Shown one piece after another: positions 617-26,922 of a stretch of DNA of 64,000 bases. Every line of letters starts with the position of its first letter. Position 1 is the stretch's first letter. The DNA lies in NCBI RefSeq assembly GCF_055900595.2, contig NZ_CM148325.1; one strand, 5' to 3'. A program made the translations under genes and the position numbers. The notes under the pieces are model-generated. The model worked only from the letters and a program-made list of their open reading frames with translations, had not been told where the DNA came from and made no database searches.

Positions 617-1134
617 TTCATAATTCGCCGGATTAACGATATTTGTCTGATTAATAATCAGACCGGATTAATGTTGGTGTGTTTATAACACCAACATTAA
701 TTTCCTGGGGATATATTCTTCCTGTTCATTTAAAGCCAACTGCCTGACGTTTCTCTCCGAATATTCCATTATATTAATGTTGATTTGTTGACCAGCTTCG
801 CCCCTGTATGCTGGTATCAACTCTCTTTTAGACTGAACAAGCCACTCCGCCCCCTCCCTTTGCGGAGCAGCCTGCATTTACACTCAAACTGTTAAGATGA
901 TAAATGTGGTAAATCTGTTGGTACTAACATAAAAACGTTTACGCCACAGGAACAGCCTGATCCACCAGTAACCCCATCGCCGACGTTCGAGTGCCAGTTA
1001 GAGTAACGCGCACAGATGACTGCACGCAGTGCCCTGTCAAAGAGGCCATCGTTCCTGTGACAGCTGGCAGCCTTCGTTTAACTTCACTTAATTTGGCTCT
1101 TGGGGGGCTTACCGAACAGGGTAATGACTCCAAC

Positions 1135-1638
1135 TTATTGATAGTGTTTTATGTTCAGATAATGCCCGATGACTTTGTCATGCAGCTCCACCGATTTTGA
1201 GAACGACAGCGACTTCCGTCCCAGCCGTGCCAGGTGCTGCCTCAGATTCAGGTTATGCCGCTCAATTCGCTGCGTATATCGCTTGCTGATTACGTGCAGC
1301 TTTCCCTTCAGGCGGGATTCATACAGCGGCCAGCCATCCGTCATCCATATCACCACGTCAAAGGGTGACAGCAGGCTCATAAGACGCCCCAGCGTCGCCA
1401 TAGTGCGTTCACCGAATACGTGCGCAACAACCGTCTTCCGGAGCCTGTCATACGCGTAAAACAGCCAGCGCTGGCGCGATTTAGCCCCGACATAGCCCCA
1501 CTGTTCGTCCATTTCCGCGCAGACGATGACGTCACTGCCCGGCTGTATGCGCGAGGTTACCGACTGCGGCCTGAGTTTTTTAAGTGACGTAAAATCGTGT
1601 TGAGGCCAACGCCCATAATGCGGGCAGTTGCCCGGCAT
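1135..1638 (-). CDS. insB: IS1 InsB frame (transposase made as InsAB' by frameshifting)
   Basis: 167-aa ORF overlapping insA 3' end in -1 frame, typical IS1 organisation. Confidence 0.85.
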
Positions 1639-1832
1639 CCAACGCCATTCATGGCCATATCAATGATTTTCTGGTGCGTACCGGGTTGAGAAGCGGTGTA
1701 AGTGAACTGCAGTTGCCATGTTTTACGGCAGTGAGAGCAGAGATAGCGCTGATGTCCGGCGGTGCTTTTGCCGTTACGCACCACCCCGTCAGTAGCTGAA
1801 CAGGAGGGACAGCTGATAGAAACAGAAGCCAC
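1557..1832 (-). CDS. insA: IS1 protein InsA
   Basis: 91-aa translation [37 protein letters not shown]... Confidence 0.9.
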
Positions 1833-1949
1833 TGGAGCACCTCAAAAACACCATCATACACTAAATCAGTAAGTTGGCAGCATCACCAAAACCTGCAAAA
1901 ACTCTTAGATCTTTTACAGAGCGAAGATGGATTCAGTAGCAATAAGAAG

Positions 1950-4949
1950 TTGATTGGCAAATTTCGTTTGTTACCGAAAAAATTAACCACAAAGAAAAAA
2001 CATGAATCCCAAAATGGACACGTCCACTTTTCTAATCCTAAACGAGCAGCCGACCATTTATTTAATAATTTTGATCTGATACCAGAGTTTCGTATTATTG
2101 GTGACTTCCCGGTTGATAGTCACATTATCTCTGCACTATGGATTAACATGGTCGGGCATAAATTTGATGCCAGCTTAGATAACTGTTGCTATGGCGCGCG
2201 GCTAAAGCGTATTCGTAATGATGAATTATTTAGCAATGAGCAGGATAATCCATTCCATATCAGTGCAGTGGGTTCTTTTAGCCCCTACTTCCAGCCCTAC
2301 CAAAAATGGCGTGGTGATGGCTTAAAAGCTATACGTGACGAGTTGGAAAAAGATCGTGACATTATCGCCGCCTCACTGGATTTAAAAAGTTACTATCATT
2401 TTATTGATCCACTGGCTATAACCTCTGATGATCTCTATAACACACTAAACATAAAACTGACTGAGGATGAAAAAGCGTTTACTGCACAGTTAGCAGTATT
2501 CTTAAAGCACTGGTCTGACGGCGCAGCGGCATTTGGAAAGAAAATAGCGTACAAAACACCTGTTATTAATGGTGGTCTGGTCATTGGATTAACAGCCAGT
2601 CGGATCATTTCAAATATATTGCTACACCATTGGGATAAATTAGTCATTGAAAAACTATCACCAATTCACTACGGTCGTTATGTCGATGATATGTTCCTTG
2701 TAATACGCGATACAGGGAAAATTACTAATAATCACGAATTTATGTTATTGCTGCAAGATAGGCTTGGCAATGATTGCGTTTATTTGAAAAACGAGCAAAA
2801 ACAAATATGGCAAATACAGCAGGGCGAGCATTTCCAGGGTAAGACCACCATCCAGTTACAATCCGATAAGCAAAAACTTTTCGTGCTTCAAGGGAGGGCT
2901 GGAATAGACCTGCTCGACAGTATCGAAAAGGAGATCTACGAGCTTTCTAGTGAACACCGCTTGATGCCTTCACCGGATCAACTGGAACACTCAACCGCAG
3001 CTAAAGTCCTTTCCGCTGCCGGTAGTGTAGGTGAAAATGCCGATACTCTGCGCCGTGCAGATGGATTAACCATTCGTCGTTTGGGCTGGTCACTGCAATT
3101 ACGCTACGTTGAAACACTGGCACGAGATCTGCCTCCAAGTGAATGGAAAGAACAGCGGGAAGAGTTTTATCAGTTTGCCTACAACCATATTCTTAGGGCT
3201 GATAATCTATTTGCACATTTTAGTTATCTGCCAAGGCTGCTTGGCTTTGCTATCAGTATGAATGAATGGCAGCACGCGGAAACAATTGTACTTAAAGCTT
3301 ACGAATCCATCAACCTGTTGGCATCGGTGATTACTTCAGGTAAGGAAGTGAATATAAATGGTTGCAAAACTCGAGCAGTAAATGATCTTTGGCGCTGTAT
3401 AAAAGGCACATTAAGCTGGCTATTTGTTGATGCAGCGACACGATATTACAGTCCTGACAGATTATTTCTTGATAAACGTTCAAAGAAAGAAGAGTGCCTT
3501 GCGGATACATTTTTTAATCATATTTCACAAAGTCTGACGAATCTAAAGGATTTACTGGATCTTCGCTTTGATTCAGCAGATTTTTATTTAAAAGCGCCAT
3601 TGGTAGCTCGAGCTGATTTAGCAAAGGAACCTTATAAACAGATCGTAAAGAGTCAGTCGGCAGAAAAACTTGTTAATCAGCGTGATAGTAAAAAAGAAGT
3701 TAAAATACTGAAATTAATGAGCGACTCATCGCTTATTGATATTGACGTTATTAAGCTATTTTTGAAATCAACCAAGAATACCCGACTGGAAAAAGTGGCT
3801 AAAGGAAATCGTAAGAACGAAAGTTACCTACCTTACATTTTCCCTACACGTCCTTTAACACCCGCTGAAATATCAGAACTGGCCCCCGAATGTGTTGGAT
3901 TACCCTCCACATCCGACAAAAAACCAGATGAGAGACCGTCCACCATTTGGGCAAAATATACTCAAGCATTACGCGGAGTATGGATCAAACCGACGTTGCT
4001 AGCATCGGAGCAGGACTCAGATGAAGCGACAAAAAAAGCTCGGCCTAAGAAATTCATTCATATTGGCACAGACAGGAAACATAAAGTTGTCGTTGCGCTA
4101 ACCAGCATTAAAACAGAGGAGGACGACTGGGCTAAAATGGCCTGCAATAAATCTAACTTGTCCCGTTCAAGGTACCAGCGGATTTCTGAACTGGTTAATG
4201 CAACATTGAAACTATCTCCTAAACCTGATTATGTTTTATTCCCTGAGCTTTCAATCCCGTTACGCTGGGTTAACAGTATTGCTGATCGTTTGAGTTCGGC
4301 GGGTATCAGTCTAATTGCGGGAACAGAATACCGCCACTTAGACGATAATCAACTGAAGAGTGAGGCCGTACTTGTCCTTTCAGATAACAGACTCGGCTAT
4401 CCAGCGAGTGTCAAAATATGGCAACCCAAGCTGGAACCCGCCGTAGGTGAAGATGAGGCATTATTTTCAACTTATGGTAAGTCTTGGGACTCGACACTTA
4501 ATGTTAAACAACGTAAGCCGGTATATATTCATCATGGCGTCAATTTTGGCGTTATGATTTGCTCTGAACTCCAGAATAGTAAAGCGAGGATCCGTTTTCA
4601 GGGCGCACTCGATGCATTAATGGTATTGAGCTGGAATAAAGATCTAGATACGTTTGCATCGTTGATTGAATCAGCAGCGCTGGATATTCATGCCTATACT
4701 ATTTTAGTGAATAACCGAAAATACGGCGATAGTCGCGTACGTTCCCCGGCAAAAGAACCCTTTATGCGTGATATTGCTCGTGTGAAGGGCGGTGATAATG
4801 ACTTTGTGGTCGCTGCAACGCTGGATATCGACTCGTTAAGGGCATTTCAGAGCAGGGCAAAACGCTGGCCTAAAGGCGGCGATAAATTCAAACCGTTACC
4901 TGAAGGATTCCAGTTGGCAAAGAACCGCAAAAAGCTACCGCCAAAATAA
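1950..4949 (+). CDS. Reverse transcriptase fused to C-terminal nitrilase/C-N hydrolase domain (DRT type 1 / UG1-like); 5' end probably truncated by IS1
   Basis: RT motif A ASLDLKSYYHFID and motif C RYVDDMFLV; C-terminal FPELS...GVMICSELQ (Glu and Cys of nitrilase triad); first start is TTG and frame stays open back to IS1 edge. Confidence 0.7.
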   Translation: MIGKFRLLPKKLTTKKKHESQNGHVHFSNPKRAADHLFNNFDLIPEFRIIGDFPVDSHIISALWINMVGHKFDASLDNCCYGARLKRIRNDELFSNEQDNPFHISAVGSFSPYFQPYQKWRGDGLKAIRDELEKDRDIIAASLDLKSYYHFIDPLAITSDDLYNTLNIKLTEDEKAFTAQLAVFLKHWSDGAAAFGKKIAYKTPVINGGLVIGLTASRIISNILLHHWDKLVIEKLSPIHYGRYVDDMFLVIRDTGKITNNHEFMLLLQDRLGNDCVYLKNEQKQIWQIQQGEHFQGKTTIQLQSDKQKLFVLQGRAGIDLLDSIEKEIYELSSEHRLMPSPDQLEHSTAAKVLSAAGSVGENADTLRRADGLTIRRLGWSLQLRYVETLARDLPPSEWKEQREEFYQFAYNHILRADNLFAHFSYLPRLLGFAISMNEWQHAETIVLKAYESINLLASVITSGKEVNINGCKTRAVNDLWRCIKGTLSWLFVDAATRYYSPDRLFLDKRSKKEECLADTFFNHISQSLTNLKDLLDLRFDSADFYLKAPLVARADLAKEPYKQIVKSQSAEKLVNQRDSKKEVKILKLMSDSSLIDIDVIKLFLKSTKNTRLEKVAKGNRKNESYLPYIFPTRPLTPAEISELAPECVGLPSTSDKKPDERPSTIWAKYTQALRGVWIKPTLLASEQDSDEATKKARPKKFIHIGTDRKHKVVVALTSIKTEEDDWAKMACNKSNLSRSRYQRISELVNATLKLSPKPDYVLFPELSIPLRWVNSIADRLSSAGISLIAGTEYRHLDDNQLKSEAVLVLSDNRLGYPASVKIWQPKLEPAVGEDEALFSTYGKSWDSTLNVKQRKPVYIHHGVNFGVMICSELQNSKARIRFQGALDALMVLSWNKDLDTFASLIESAALDIHAYTILVNNRKYGDSRVRSPAKEPFMRDIARVKGGDNDFVVAATLDIDSLRAFQSRAKRWPKGGDKFKPLPEGFQLAKNRKKLPPK

Positions 4950-5201
4950 GAAACTGATTTTCGCTATTAATAATCAGGGTATTTTTGCGTGAGATGTCGG
5001 TAAACATGATGTAGCTCTTGCCACTCATGACCAATCGCAGTATCTTTCTCCCGCGTCTGCAAAATCAGGCGTCGGGATTAGCCTCCTGAAGAAATCTTAT
5101 CGGCGACACATGACGCGCCAGCGTCTTTTTTTGTGTTGTTCGCACGGTTACACCTCAATGGTGGGCCGGGCGGGGGCGTCGCAAGACGCGCCAGTGTCCG
5201 A

Positions 5202-5295
5202 TAAGGCTGGTAAGGCTAACCCTGCCCGGTTCCACCACCCGCGAGATTAGCCTCTCCGGTGGTGGCTTGAACACCCACTTATCGGAGGTTGCCCT
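5202..5295 (+). promoter_or_regulatory. Conserved leader upstream of paralogous gene (second copy 51929-52022) with two mutually exclusive hairpins
   Basis: About 80 percent identity between the two leaders; stems GGCTAA/TTAGCC and CCACCACC/GGTGGTGG; one compensatory A-T to G-C change in copy 2. Confidence 0.35.
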
Positions 5296-5766
5296 ATGGC
5301 TACAATCCTCACCACTGACAGCGATTTACTCGATCTATTGACCGTCCCCTTCAATGCCACCACGGATTTCACTGTCCTTGCTGACTACTGCGCCCGCTTT
5401 GCCGAAACCCTGATTGAAACCGACGATCCCGCGCTACGACTGGCGCTCTGCGGGCGGCTTCACGCGGCTCTTGCGCTATTGCAACCCACACTACACGACC
5501 CCATCCCACCGCATCTTACCGAAAGCCTGACCGTGGATACCCTTCCCGCCACACCAGAGCACTTTATTTCCGAACCTGATTCCTTGTGCGAATACTGCCT
5601 CGCACTACTCCAGCTTCTGCTGGAACGTCCGGCGGAACCAAAAATGGAGCAAACCCTGACCGGGCTGCTGTGTGAGCTGGTCTGGTATTTCACGGAAGGA
5701 CTCAAAGCCCCGCGCTGGATGCGTACCGCCGACGGCGTAAAATTTATCAGCGAGGTGGCCGCATGA
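5296..5766 (+). CDS. Hypothetical acidic protein (paralog at 52023-52487)
   Basis: 156-aa ORF with GGAGG RBS 7 nt upstream; second diverged copy in window. Confidence 0.6.
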   Translation: MATILTTDSDLLDLLTVPFNATTDFTVLADYCARFAETLIETDDPALRLALCGRLHAALALLQPTLHDPIPPHLTESLTVDTLPATPEHFISEPDSLCEYCLALLQLLLERPAEPKMEQTLTGLLCELVWYFTEGLKAPRWMRTADGVKFISEVAA

Positions 5767-5903
5767 TGCAACAGGACTGGCATTCCGCCGACATTATTGC
5801 GGTGCTGAAAAAGCGGGGAACGCCTCTGGCGGCACAGAGAAAAACTCATTGCGGAAGCGCTGTAAATATCGCCAGAAATCATCTGGTCCTCAAGGTACTT
5901 TGA
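5763..5903 (+). pseudogene. Ner/Nlp-like DNA-binding protein, N-terminal remnant
   Basis: MMQQDWHSADIIAVLKKRGTPLAA resembles the Ner/Nlp N-terminus, then frame degenerates; overlaps integrase fragment. Confidence 0.35.
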
Positions 5904-6103
5904 TAGCAAAGGCAAGCTGGCTGGTTCAGTCCGGAGTCTCTCTTCTTGCACTTAAAGAGATGGGAGGATGGGAAACTCTCAAAAAGGTTCAGAGATACGC
6001 TCACCTTTCAGCCGGGCATCTCACCGAGCACGCAAGCAAAATCGGCACGATCATAAGTCGCAATGGCACAAATACGGCACAGGAGGAAGCGTGGTGTATT
6101 TAA
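5849..6103 (+). pseudogene. Tyrosine integrase C-terminal fragment
   Basis: LLALKEMGGWETLKKVQRYAHLS is a typical recombinase C-terminus with catalytic Tyr region; no N-terminal domains upstream. Confidence 0.6.
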
Positions 6104-6126
6104 ATATGGGGTAACTACTTGATTTA

Positions 6127-6145
6127 AATGGTGCGATAATAGGAA
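6127..6145. repeat. att core repeat: partial direct copy of thrW 3' end (matches 26845-26864)
   Basis: AATGGTGCGATAATAGGA vs AATGGTGCCGATAATAGGA at the tRNA 3' end, 18 of 19 identical. Confidence 0.6.
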
Positions 6146-6206
6146 CAATACACATAGGCGATAAGCTTTGTTTTTGTTGCCTTTTTTATTGTTCATTTTT
6201 TATAGA

Positions 6207-6227
6207 TACCCCCAAAAGTACCCCCAT
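6207..6227 (+). repeat. TACCCCCAAAAGTACCCCCAT motif near attR (copy also at 26714-26734 near attL/int promoter)
   Basis: 21-bp motif present once near each end of the element in the same orientation; possible integrase arm-type site. Confidence 0.4.
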
Positions 6228-6345
6228 ATCTTTTTCCGCCCCTGAAATTTGGTTGTTATTCATACAGCATATCAGGCGGTAACGCTCTCCCTTTAACCCA
6301 CTTATTGTATGATAGTGCTATCCCACAATAAGGAATCAGCCAGCC

Positions 6346-6705
6346 ATGAGAATGACCAGCCGTAAAAAAGAGATACTCAGTTATTTTGAGCCGGATAACC
6401 TAGAATGGGTGACAGGTGAGATTGGTGCGCCGCCGTTCGATGTGTCGGGCGTGGCCTACCTGCTTCATGGCATGGTGTCGTTCGATAAGCGCCACCAGCT
6501 CGAATCAACCCGGCGCACACTGGAAAGCATGGTTGCTGGTGGACTGCTTGAGCGGGTGACAGTGTATGAATCGCGTCAGGTACGGCGCGGCGGTGAGACT
6601 AACGCAACGGTCGTGCGCTACGGTTTACCCGGTCACTGCGCTGTTATGCGCGATACTGGCGGCGCTGATAACGCAATATCAGGCGAATACATGCGGGTCA
6701 GTTAA
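6346..6705 (+). CDS. Hypothetical protein
   Basis: 119-aa ORF, AAGGAA RBS 8 nt upstream; inverted repeat TTATTGT(N16)ACAATAA in promoter region. Confidence 0.5.
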   Translation: MRMTSRKKEILSYFEPDNLEWVTGEIGAPPFDVSGVAYLLHGMVSFDKRHQLESTRRTLESMVAGGLLERVTVYESRQVRRGGETNATVVRYGLPGHCAVMRDTGGADNAISGEYMRVS

Positions 6706-7240
6706 GAGCCTGCAATCTGTCGTTAATGTTGTTCAGGTCGTAAACCCGGCGTTCAATATCCAGCATCAGGAAATCGTGGATCTCGGCCTGTTCAGGATTA
6801 TCAGACTCTCTGGCCTGTAAGAGCAATTCATTGTAACCATGCAAACCACCCGAATTTTCCGCCGGGGTAGTGCCCTTCCCGCGCAAACAGCTAACAGGCT
6901 GGATACTGGTATCATGTGTTTGCTTCTCCAGCACAACAAGGCAATCCCACCAGTCGCCAAAGTCATACGTGTAAACCAGCTTGTCACCCTCATTCTGGAG
7001 CGCCGCCCATAGTGGCGTGATTGCCGCGTTACCCATGCTTTCATCCTCACCCCATACGCGATACTCGCTACCTGGATCACCTTTACGCCCTTTCTCGAAC
7101 ATATACAGGTGTTCGTCATTCCAGCCAAAAGCTAACTGGATCACGGCATGAAGTTTACTAAAGGGGATTTGCTCTGGAACCAGCACACGCCGCCATATTG
7201 GTGGTTTGCTGTCTCGGATGGTTATCTTTATCTGGTACAT
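6698..7240 (-). CDS. pRiA4b ORF-3-like family protein
   Basis: N-terminus MYQIKITIRDSKPPIWRRVLVPEQIPFSKLHAVIQLAFGWNDEHLYMF matches the characteristic start of this family. Confidence 0.6.
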   Translation of the reverse strand: MYQIKITIRDSKPPIWRRVLVPEQIPFSKLHAVIQLAFGWNDEHLYMFEKGRKGDPGSEYRVWGEDESMGNAAITPLWAALQNEGDKLVYTYDFGDWWDCLVVLEKQTHDTSIQPVSCLRGKGTTPAENSGGLHGYNELLLQARESDNPEQAEIHDFLMLDIERRVYDLNNINDRLQALN

Positions 7241-7283
7241 GCGTCGTGAACCAATAGTGTACGTTTAGGTGGGTATTTTTCTG

Positions 7284-7718
7284 CTACTGACCAGGATAGA
7301 GCTGATGTGCCGGGTCAAGCCAGACAATATGGAATACATTACCGATGAAAAATCCATGTATGCGACCATATTCATTGCGCGATATGGCAAATTGATAAGG
7401 TGTATAACTCTGAAACTGTTCATTCAAATGCTGAAATCCCTTAGGTTCAGATGTAGTTTGCCAATCAATCGGATGTGACTTCAACGAACCACCGCGATCG
7501 GTGGTGAACTCTCGTTCAGTCATAGTGGAAAGGTCTTTGAGGCGGTCTAACACCTTGCAAAAATAAACAGGATTCTGAGCGCTGAAAGTAAATTTCTCAT
7601 GCGCCGCATCGATATACCGAAAAGAAAAGTTGATGGTCGTTATGCCTGAACCTGTTCCCCCAGGCACTATTTTTGTTTGCGAGGGTGCAATCTTCGACGC
7701 CCTGATTCTTTTCGCCAT
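7284..7718 (-). CDS. Hypothetical 144-aa protein, candidate toxin/effector partner of Panacea-domain protein
   Basis: ORF starts 2 nt after the stop of the upstream Panacea gene; no recognisable motif. Confidence 0.5.
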   Translation of the reverse strand: MAKRIRASKIAPSQTKIVPGGTGSGITTINFSFRYIDAAHEKFTFSAQNPVYFCKVLDRLKDLSTMTEREFTTDRGGSLKSHPIDWQTTSEPKGFQHLNEQFQSYTPYQFAISRNEYGRIHGFFIGNVFHIVWLDPAHQLYPGQ

Positions 7719-7720
7719 AT

Positions 7721-8176
7721 TTAGGAAGCCATCGAACGATAAAACTCAGCCGTTACACTTTTATCAATAACATTCTTGCACGGCGCATCTGATGGAACCC
7801 CTTCACGGGCCTCCAGCCACGGCTTTTCTTGGTGCGTCATCTGCTCCAGCTCATAAGCTGTATAACCGCCAAATACCTCATAGATTTCCTTTAGATGCTT
7901 TGACACATTCGCAGGTAACTCAGGGCAGGCAATCTCTTCGTCTATTGAGCGCCATTTGTAATCTGCAAATCTGGTATACAAATCTCTGGCTACAGGGCCA
8001 TGTACCCATGCTTCAAACTTGTCAGCAACCAGTTCTTCGCCATCATTCAGCGCCATGAACCAAGCATCAGCATAGAACACCATTTTTTGCAGTTTCAGCG
8101 GCGTCATAACATCCCCATGCTCTTGAGCAAAGCAAAGCAGGTAATCCGCTACGCTGTTAAGGGTTGTAACTGCCAT
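7721..8176 (-). CDS. Panacea-domain protein (DUF4065, GepA/SocA-like antitoxin family)
   Basis: MTPLKLQKMVFYADAWFMAL...EAWVHGPV...YELEQMTHQEKPWLEAREG pattern; start moved to internal ATG at 8176 with AGGAG RBS. Confidence 0.75.
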   Translation of the reverse strand: MAVTTLNSVADYLLCFAQEHGDVMTPLKLQKMVFYADAWFMALNDGEELVADKFEAWVHGPVARDLYTRFADYKWRSIDEEIACPELPANVSKHLKEIYEVFGGYTAYELEQMTHQEKPWLEAREGVPSDAPCKNVIDKSVTAEFYRSMAS

Positions 8177-26846: not shown

Positions 26847-26922
26847 TGGTGCCGATAATAGGAGTCGAACCTACGACCTTCGCATTACGAATGCGCTGCT
26901 CTACCAACTGAGCTATATCGGC
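26847..26922 (-). tRNA. thrW: tRNA-Thr (anticodon CGU)
   Basis: Reverse complement GCCGATATAGCTCAGTTGGTAGAGCAGCGCATTCGTAATGCG...TATCGGCACCA; anticodon loop TTCGTAA. Confidence 0.9.

Follow-up and report, generated by a model that had tools for sequence, protein, structure and literature searches.

A reverse transcriptase (RT)-nitrilase gene at positions 1888-4949 of the window, the whole 64-kb stretch of DNA analysed here, is, with a probability that we put at roughly 86%, a recent pseudogene of the class 3 UG5-large family that was cut by an IS1-associated deletion and has most probably lost its defence function. Most likely the remnant is a dead gene of the ordinary kind, from a defence family that was already described and known. 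The preliminary description had offered an inactivated defence gene as one of two readings, and this is the better of them, given the lack of a credible promoter or start and the loss of a conserved segment of the RT fingers. The gene should accordingly be annotated as a UG5-large defence RT pseudogene that lacks its 5' end, and neither as an intact gene nor as DRT1.

Table 1. Features of the RT-nitrilase locus and its surroundings, in window coordinates
Feature	Position	Strand	Remarks
Complete IS1	1120-1887		768 bp, minus strand; insA/insB' face away from the RT gene
Sole candidate outward hybrid promoter	1874..1903	+	Read from sequence
Deletion junction	1887..1888		Window 1888 equals nt 149 of 3210 in the intact gene
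5'-truncated UG5-large RT-nitrilase gene	1888..4949	+	Codon 50 (in part) through the stop of a 1069-codon gene
Mechanical ORF, 999 aa	1950..4949	+	First start-like codon, TTG, is Leu71 of the intact protein
Remaining RT domain (fingers and palm)	1950..3020	+	Residues 71-~427
Alpha-helical region between RT and nitrilase	3078..4019	+	Residues ~447-760; AlphaFold2 secondary structure
Nitrilase-superfamily (C-N hydrolase) domain	4053..4946	+	Residues ~772-1069
isrK	5053-5131	+	Immunity region of the decayed integrative element carrying the RT gene
C4 antisense RNA	5154-5242	+	Immunity region of the same element
Degenerate 16-nt copy of the tRNA-Thr(cgt) 3' end	6129..6144	-	Old attachment-site end of the RT island

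The element next to the gene is a full IS1, with a length of 768 bp, ~23-bp imperfect terminal inverted repeats (23 nt each, at 1120-1142 and 1865-1887) and the insA (1832..1557) and insB' (insB, 1638..1135) frames, both on the minus strand. As had been noted before, it abuts a long open RT-nitrilase frame without an ATG. Upstream of position 1950 this frame continues into IS1 without a stop as far as a TGA at 1797, with no ATG, GTG or TTG in frame between that TGA and the TTG at 1950; position 1888 itself is out of frame with 1950, the frame passing via 1887/1890, and codon 50 of the intact gene is cut by the junction. The DNA from 1888 to 4949 is 100% identical to the allele of E. coli E200086, with 0 amino-acid differences over residues 71-1069. 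Since the remaining 1020 codons contain no second lesion, decay is not advanced, and residual function would be possible judging from the sequence alone.

Simple insertion of IS1 generates a target-site duplication of 8-9 bp. Comparison of the left flank (ACCGAACAG) with the right flank (AAAACCTGC) revealed no such duplication at this IS1, indicating a product of deletion or recombination, and the genome of E200086 confirmed this: the flanks on both sides of IS1 are 99.9-100% identical to that genome and collinear with it, but lie 20,360 bp apart there, so that the window has lost 20,360 bp between its positions 1119 and 1888. By this alignment, the event was an adjacent deletion associated with IS1, 20,360 bp long and without target-site duplication. 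IS1 adjacent deletions leave one IS1 copy in place without direct repeats (PMC9330008), and the locus shares with those that arise by intramolecular replicative transposition the single complete IS1 at the junction, the absence of a target-site duplication and collinear flanks that are 20 kb apart in relatives (PMC9330008), with nothing unusual in this case. Two IS1 copies recombining with each other would yield an identical product, and the two routes are indistinguishable. The earlier proposal that IS1 removed the 5' end of the gene therefore stands as to the loss of that end, although the loss came about by a 20,360-bp deletion and not by a simple clipping insertion.

Inversion was ruled out, the flanks being collinear. 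A very improbable alternative is that no DNA was lost and that IS1-IS1 recombination or inversion carried the 5' end, along with the adjoining 20 kb, to another place in the genome, leaving a split gene; such recombination would likewise leave no target-site duplication, but the order and relative orientation of the flanks are those of E200086, as expected of a deletion and not of an inversion, and the missing segment was not found anywhere in the 64-kb window. The gene is disrupted in either case. The identical IS1 junction was absent from the 5426 complete E. coli genomes searched, and an exact-protein look-up matched solely contigs with an intact upstream region and the W10* nonsense allele, all without the IS1 junction.

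From the RT gene, the deletion took the promoter region, the Shine-Dalgarno sequence, the ATG and codons 1-49 (the first 148 nt). It also took the neighbouring defence locus, the AbiEi/AbiEii toxin-antitoxin pair, together with genes for a LysR regulator, an MFS transporter and an alpha/beta hydrolase, paoABCD, yagU, ykgJ and ecpR-ecpE (the ecp pilus operon). A single IS1 event thus cost the genome two defence systems, AbiE and UG5, as well as the ECP pilus and aldehyde oxidoreductase operons, which is typical of IS-driven genome reduction and illustrates the fast turnover of defence islands.

Intact alleles in other E. coli bore out the 5' truncation at the IS1 end and the loss of the native promoter and 5' end. 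About 260 of the 5426 complete genomes contain the same gene at at least 99% identity as a 1069-aa ORF, which starts at a good ATG preceded by a Shine-Dalgarno sequence (AGGA-N8-ATG); strains 042 and E200086 are among the carriers of this lineage. Full-length homologues begin ~70 residues before the equivalent of position 1950; a start at that very position, which the preliminary description had named as a refutation, is not what they show, and among 130 full-length, diverged homologues (31-64% identity) none starts at or after residue 50. The missing codons 1-49 and the absence of any homologue starting so late mark the window copy as a pseudogene of UG5-large and not an intact member of the family.

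The lost 49 residues hold the near-invariant motif AYRKAKxD. Conservation is at least 90% at A21, Y22, R23, K24, K26, E45 and L48 and at least 82% at A25 and D28. In the AlphaFold2 model residues 15-60 are predicted to form helices (pLDDT ~97), and codons 1-49 correspond to the first helix, which carries AYRKAKxD, all of the second and the beginning of the third. Alignment of the UG5-large and UG5-small proteins with known biochemistry, called DRT5L and DRT5S by Neville et al. (2026), likewise starts at profile positions 11-13. The N-terminal 146 aa, used as a single sequence, had only chance matches in the PDB (CorA, ATP synthase); at the profile level, positions 10-66 are similar to the N terminus of G2L4 RTs, a resemblance so weak that we keep it only as a lead.

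Profile comparisons placed the gene in UG5-large, a class 3 UG/Abi RT family. The best PADLOC match of the remnant was RT_UG5-nitrilase (PDLC03780; E = 7.7e-288, 956 bits), with the alignment beginning at profile position 79, and the intact protein outscored the remnant by 78 bits on the same model (1034 bits), its residues 1-1068 covering profile positions 9-901. A second PADLOC UG5-nitrilase model, which we take to represent the RT-nitrilase system with a transmembrane (TM) protein of Rousset et al., scored far lower (E = 2.2e-52 for the remnant and 4e-56 for the intact protein), and the RTasNitrilase model gave E = 1.7e-43 for the remnant. The E. coli protein is ~30-45% identical to most members of the family.

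The assignment to UG1/DRT type 1 in the preliminary description did not hold, and we regard it as extremely improbable. UG5 and UG1 are both class 3 UG/Abi RTs. Their overall architecture is alike, the closest relative in the PDB is the solved DRT1 structure, and nitrilase trees nest UG1 within the UG5 radiation (bioRxiv 10.64898/2025.12.16.694600). Drt1a, the next different family in PADLOC, does match the RT part (residues 81-339; ~90 bits, E = 2.6e-26), and Drt1a models match the nitrilase part (E = 9.6e-10). The UG5-nitrilase model, however, scores about tenfold more bits and covers the whole protein, whereas the DRT1 profile alignment is confined to the RT core and the nitrilase domain; moreover, the intact protein has 1069 aa as against ~1200-1300 aa for UG1 (PMC9226505).

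The fusion of an RT to a nitrilase domain, as first described, was confirmed by PADLOC, the family profile and Foldseek, and the motifs quoted for it, motif A (SLDLKSYYHFID), YVDD, FPELS and GVMICSELQ, are all present. The RT domain retains K80 (1977-1979), R118 and W134, the family-invariant D214 of motif A (2379-2381) and the YVDD of residues 314-317 (2679-2690); D214 and Y314-V315-D316-D317 are invariant or near-invariant in 104 homologues. The conserved residues E836 (4245-4247, invariant, within FPELS), K897 (4428-4430) and C941 (4560-4562, within GVMICSELQ) form the candidate nitrilase triad. The AlphaFold2 model (pLDDT 90.7, pTM 0.93) returned nitrilases and amidases at probability 1.00 in a Foldseek search with its C-terminal domain, and the presence of AbiA among the Foldseek matches supports the helical region. 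The family profile matched many solved RTs, and its alignment to the DRT1 structure 9yfd included both the RT and the nitrilase parts (E = 8e-31), placing C941 on C1116 of the DRT1 nitrilase. NCBIfam gave RT matches below threshold only, and neither RVT_1 nor CN_hydrolase of Pfam-A was significant in the remnant or the intact protein; because RVT_1 was found in 86 of the 104 homologues and the fold search confirmed the nitrilase fold, we did not take the Pfam result as a refutation.

Just past the palm lies a conserved Ser-Ser (SSExRxLP), with the invariant S404 at 2949-2951 and S403 before it. S404 falls within 1-2 residues of DRT1 S402 on ungapped extension, the HMM alignment itself stopping 8 residues earlier, and Ser403/Ser404 may play in UG5 the part of the priming serine of DRT1. 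S402 is stated as not conserved outside DRT1 (Neville et al. 2026, PMC13275509), and the equivalence of the priming sites is for that reason unproven. For the UG5 family, the alignments suggest two small points: the near-invariant AYRKAKxD, and an invariant Ser-Ser that appears to occupy the position of the DRT1 priming serine.

The intact E. coli gene resembles UG5-large, including 'DRT11' of Sinorhizobium meliloti RMO17 and DRT5L (Neville et al. 2026), in its YVDD RT, helical linker, fused C-terminal nitrilase, E-K-C triad and length of ~1000-1100 aa. UG5-large is also its best PADLOC model, which the intact protein covers end to end; DRT5L aligns with it from the N-terminal motif on. Like UG5-large, the E. 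coli gene is part of a mobile island with further defence genes (AbiE) next to it. The window copy differs from these systems in lacking codons 1-49 and all upstream signals. Among ORFs of at least 30 aa in 4900-6150 no hydrophobic 19-mer scored above 1.14 (Kyte-Doolittle), so that, like DRT11, the gene has no downstream transmembrane partner. Such a protein is optional in UG5-large (31 of 299 members), and DRT11 does without it. The system of Rousset et al. 2022 (Rst_RT-nitrilase-Tm), which shares the UG5-large type, a P2/P4-type mobile element and the E. coli host (PMC9226505; bioRxiv 10.64898/2025.12.16.694600), in contrast requires a downstream transmembrane protein, and none is encoded in the 4900-6150 interval. 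The DRT type 1 (UG1) system of Klebsiella pneumoniae (cryo-EM structure 9YFD) is likewise a class 3 RT-nitrilase fusion with a homologous RT core and nitrilase and has its Ser402 near the E. coli Ser-Ser, but by HMM score it belongs to another family, the E. coli protein is ~160 aa shorter, and the N-terminal and helical regions are unalignable at the sequence level.

By analogy with these systems, the intact gene would be a single-gene abortive-infection system, with RT, helical region and nitrilase in one polypeptide. The RT domain would prime on a hydroxyl side chain of its own and, by template-free synthesis, make short single-stranded DNA that would be left covalently attached; these DNA adducts may control oligomerisation of the nitrilase domains, which would act as the effector released upon phage infection. 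We infer this mechanism from DRT1, a distant relative to which the profile match spans the RT core and nitrilase domain only. Covalent, template-independent DNA is made by DRT1, DRT5S and DRT5L (PMC13275509), and a UG5-large RT-nitrilase alone protects S. meliloti, with both catalytic sites required (bioRxiv 10.64898/2025.12.16.694600). An Rfam search at an E-value threshold detected no ncRNA upstream of the intact gene, in agreement with the literature, which reports none for class 3 UG/Abi RTs. A literature search for protein accessions of the E. coli RT-nitrilase found no paper.

The other reading of the preliminary description, in which IS1 now drives the gene, is unlikely: insA and insB are transcribed in the opposite direction, the sole candidate promoter matches at 8 of 12 positions, and the TTG has no Shine-Dalgarno sequence before it. 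This candidate consists of a -35-like TTGGCA (1874-1879, inside the IS1 end), an 18-nt spacer and AAAACT (1898-1903), which matches at 3 of 6 positions as a -10 element, and it fell below the threshold of the promoter scan, which found no site reading from IS1 into the RT gene. The two plus-strand scan sites within the gene (1954-1983 and 2071-2098) are common to the intact allele and are ordinary AT-rich matches. TTG is able to initiate translation. At 1950, no Shine-Dalgarno sequence with proper spacing precedes it, and an AAGAAG directly touches it.

Expression of an active 999-aa RT-nitrilase, defending or deregulated, from the hybrid promoter and TTG 1950 would be favoured by a frame that is intact and identical to a functional-looking allele, by the retention of every catalytic residue and by the TTGGCA-N18-AAAACT crossing the junction, IS1 fusion promoters being documented (PMC9330008). 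We nevertheless consider it improbable, in view of the poor promoter and start and of a product that would be short of 70 residues, including the AYRKAKxD helix and N51, L52 and L55, an N terminus so short occurring in none of the 130 full-length natural homologues. That the shortened protein, without residues 1-70, is made in this way as a natural variant with changed behaviour is decidedly improbable; if it were, the nitrilase might be unchecked by DNA adducts or act as a dominant-negative subunit, and the conserved N-terminal helices would be dispensable or regulatory. We favour a pseudogene whose defence function is most probably lost, since whatever product was made would be missing a conserved stretch of the RT fingers. 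RT-dead DRT1 is monomeric, non-defensive and non-toxic (PMC13275509), a precedent that predicts an inert monomer if the RT failed, and we therefore expect a silent, harmless remnant.

Finally, the gene has suffered independent lesions in other lineages, namely the W10* nonsense codon and an ISKpn26 insertion, suggesting that it is often dispensable. In the window, it lies on a decayed integrative element whose immunity region and old attachment-site end can still be recognised downstream (Table 1), and the real thrW gene is located at 26847-26922.

Comparison with complete E. coli genomes revealed that the window copy of the RT-nitrilase gene is a pseudogene produced by an IS and belongs to a defence family already described. 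The 3062 bases at 1888-4949 were found at 99% identity or better in 260 of 5426 complete genomes, and at 100% identity in strain E200086, which carries the intact gene, and in five other genomes. The intact gene has 3210 nt (1069 codons), with AGGA eight bases ahead of its ATG, and its nt 149 is the first base retained in the window; therefore, 49 codons and one base have been lost. The TTG at 1950 is an internal codon, Leu71 of the intact protein. Because residues 71-1069 show no amino-acid difference between the window and the E200086 protein, the truncating event is recent. None of 130 full-length homologues (31-64% identity) starts at or after residue 50 (median start residue 1, latest 48), and thus none begins at the equivalent of 1950, so that the 5' truncation at the IS1 end put forward in the preliminary description stands and is proven.

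The truncated frame adjoins the insA-proximal end of a complete IS1. As described earlier, the long frame has TTG as its first start and is open up to IS1. It extends further 5', past the IS1 end, until it meets a stop, the TGA at 1797, and no in-frame ATG, GTG or TTG lies between this stop and 1950. The frame does stay open through 1888-1949, but position 1888 is itself out of frame with 1950, the IS1/gene junction dividing a codon.

Features at and near the RT-nitrilase remnant (window positions)
Feature	Position	Strand	Remarks
Complete IS1	1120-1887		768 bp; genes on minus strand
IS1 terminal inverted repeats	1120-1142 and 1865-1887		23 nt, imperfect
insA	1832..1557	minus	
insB	1638..1135	minus	
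Mechanical ORF	1950-4949	plus	999 aa, first codon TTG
isrK	5053-5131	plus	Rfam gathering-score match, 66.5 bits
C4 antisense RNA	5154-5242	plus	Rfam gathering-score match, 71.1 bits
Degenerate copy of thrW tRNA 3' end	6129-6144		16 nt
Element with integrase	6145-26922		about 20.7 kb
thrW, tRNA-Thr(cgt)	26847-26922		

The nine bases flanking IS1 on either side, ACCGAACAG and AAAACCTGC, are unlike each other, indicating that there is no target-site duplication. The left flank (1-1119; ykgM, ykgO, ykgL) is collinear with E200086 at 99.9% identity, and in that strain 20,360 bp separate the end of the left flank from the start of the right flank (23813-44172 of the sequence locating the deletion, L004; junction 1119/1888). 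The lost segment comprises the whole common-pilus operon (ecpR-ecpE), ykgJ, yagU and paoABCD; genes for an MFS transporter, an alpha/beta hydrolase and a LysR regulator; a ykgR fragment; an AbiEii/AbiEi toxin-antitoxin pair; and a 315-bp intergenic region together with nt 1-148 of the RT gene. None of this content was found anywhere in the 64-kb window. Both IS1 intramolecular transposition and IS1-IS1 recombination classically leave such a product, a lone IS1 lacking direct repeats at the junction of a deletion (PMC9330008). The IS1 junction occurred in none of the 5426 complete E. coli RefSeq genomes, and carriers of the gene (259-260 genomes) also have the 5' segment, which is present in 260.

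The suggestion that the remnant might now be driven from IS1 is unlikely. Since insA and insB lie on the minus strand, IS1 transcription is directed away from the remnant; a consensus promoter scan found no promoter-like site directed from IS1 into the RT gene, and the TTG at 1950 has no spaced Shine-Dalgarno, AAGAAG abutting the start codon. Together, these observations argue that the remnant is most probably silent. Two plus-strand promoter matches within the ORF occur in the intact allele too. Weak transcription may arise from an IS1/flank hybrid promoter, because IS1 fusion promoters are known (PMC9330008); the candidate drawn by eye pairs TTGGCA (1874-1879, in the IS1 end) with AAAACT across an 18-nt spacer, matching at 8 of 12 positions with a poor -10. 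No further ATG occurs in frame until codon 137, past the conserved K80, R118 and W134, and any translated product would be missing a conserved portion of the RT fingers.

The fusion of an RT to a C-terminal nitrilase was confirmed, and all quoted RT and nitrilase motifs were found in the window, but assignment to UG1/DRT1 did not hold. The best PADLOC model for the remnant was RT_UG5-nitrilase (PDLC03780; E = 7.7e-288, 956 bits; residues 2-998 against positions 79-901 of 907), and RTasNitrilase spanned residues 713-988 (E = 1.7e-43), whereas Drt1a reached only E = 2.6e-26, confined to the RT core. UG5-large and UG1/DRT1 both belong to class 3 of the UG/Abi RTs (Mestre et al., PMC9226505). Pfam-A gave no domain match, missing both RVT_1 and CN_hydrolase, so the domain calls were checked three other ways; the same gap explains why RefSeq names the intact gene (4853-8062 in loci L001-L003) unevenly as "hypothetical protein" or "RNA-directed DNA polymerase". 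Searching 1.84 billion representative proteins brought up 2016 relatives, of which 853 scored E = 1e-30 or lower. Within an aligned set of 104 full-length relatives, 86 individually matched RVT_1 and none matched CN_hydrolase at 1e-3. The profile of this alignment resembled the solved DRT1 structure 9YFD (E = 8e-31) over two blocks, one being the RT core and the other the nitrilase domain, and the catalytic Cys was aligned; the profile also matched the RTs of Drt3a, DRT2, retrons and group II introns. The intact protein was modelled with confidence by AlphaFold2 (mean pLDDT 90.7, pTM 0.93). For the C-terminal domain of this model, the Foldseek matches were amidases, nitrilases and carbamoylases (probability 1.00, target-normalised TM-score 0.55-0.69), and for the N-terminal two-thirds the match was the AbiA polymerase. 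Residues D214, Y314, V315, D316 and D317 of the RT and E836, K897 and C941 of the nitrilase are invariant or nearly so among the 104 relatives, and all are kept in the window copy. The protein is therefore a UG5-large RT-nitrilase fusion.

The lost N-terminal part probably matters to the UG5 family, judging from conservation and the model. It holds A21, Y22, R23, K24, A25, K26 and D28, conserved at 82-98%, plus E45 and L48, and helices are modelled at residues 15-32, 38-46 and 48-60 (pLDDT about 97). The PADLOC alignment of the intact protein begins at profile position 9 and scores 78 bits above the remnant; DRT5L and DRT5S, the UG5-large and UG5-small proteins that have been characterised biochemically, likewise align from positions 11-13. 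In a weak profile match, these helices with their AYRKAKxD motif (intact residues 15-60, wholly or partly missing from the window; positions 10-66 of profile A2) aligned with residues 7-63 in group II intron-like 4 RTs (9d5x, 9d4s), which suggests that they are equivalent to the N-terminal extension/RT0 region there.

DRT1 and both UG5 proteins carry out template-free DNA synthesis with the product covalently bound to protein, DRT1 being primed at Ser402 (Neville et al., PMC13275509). The DRT1 adducts lead to tetramer and filament assembly with the nitrilase held dormant; abortive infection requires both catalytic sites, and DRT1 with a dead RT is a monomer that confers neither defence nor toxicity (PMC13275509). 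In S. meliloti, a UG5-large RT-nitrilase protects by itself, with neither a transmembrane partner nor an ncRNA, and requires both domains (Sanchez-Nieto et al., bioRxiv 10.64898/2025.12.16.694600). The E. coli locus shares this minimal layout, with no transmembrane ORF found downstream of the RT-nitrilase gene and no Rfam RNA upstream of the intact gene. Carried over from these relatives, the mechanism of the intact E. coli protein would involve protein-attached, template-free DNA and control of the nitrilase. Ser403-Ser404 (window 2946-2951) is a candidate priming site for UG5: S404 is invariant in 104/104 UG5-large homologues in the motif SSExRxLP, the Ser-Ser motif is present in the purified UG5-large (RSSAFRLP) and UG5-small (NSSDFLLLP) proteins, and gapless extension of the HMM alignment places it within 1-2 residues of DRT1 S402. 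The remnant itself is identical to annotated genes in public genomes and known in kind; the AYRKAKxD motif and the invariant Ser-Ser near the DRT1 priming-serine position are mildly new, at the family level only.

The RT-nitrilase gene (41.7% G+C, against 49.6% for the window) lies within a small integrative element at thrW that has decayed. Gene order in intact genomes is AbiEii, AbiEi, RT-nitrilase, isrK and C4 antisense RNA, a 156-aa ORF, a helix-turn-helix gene, an integrase fragment and tRNA-Thr. The region of isrK and C4 antisense RNA, directly 3' of the RT gene, resembles a prophage or satellite immunity region. Because the degenerate thrW copy is followed by a further element extending to the real thrW, two elements lie in tandem at this site. 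The second, which matches a region of APEC E19025 at 99.8% identity, encodes a Panacea-domain protein, a pRiA4b ORF-3 family protein, a TOPRIM/DUF927 primase, DNA-ejection proteins and an integrase.

The gene is also broken elsewhere. Logan assemblies (L005-L009, ERR149282xx; e.g. L005 2791-3000) carry it with its upstream region intact and a TGG>TAG nonsense change at Trp10, an independent inactivation that led the gene caller to default to the TTG and report the identical 999-aa product. In E. coli WP9-S17-ESBL-11 (H96; NZ_AP022287.1 4058589-4061264), the gene is interrupted by the IS5-like ISKpn26, a third, independent lesion.
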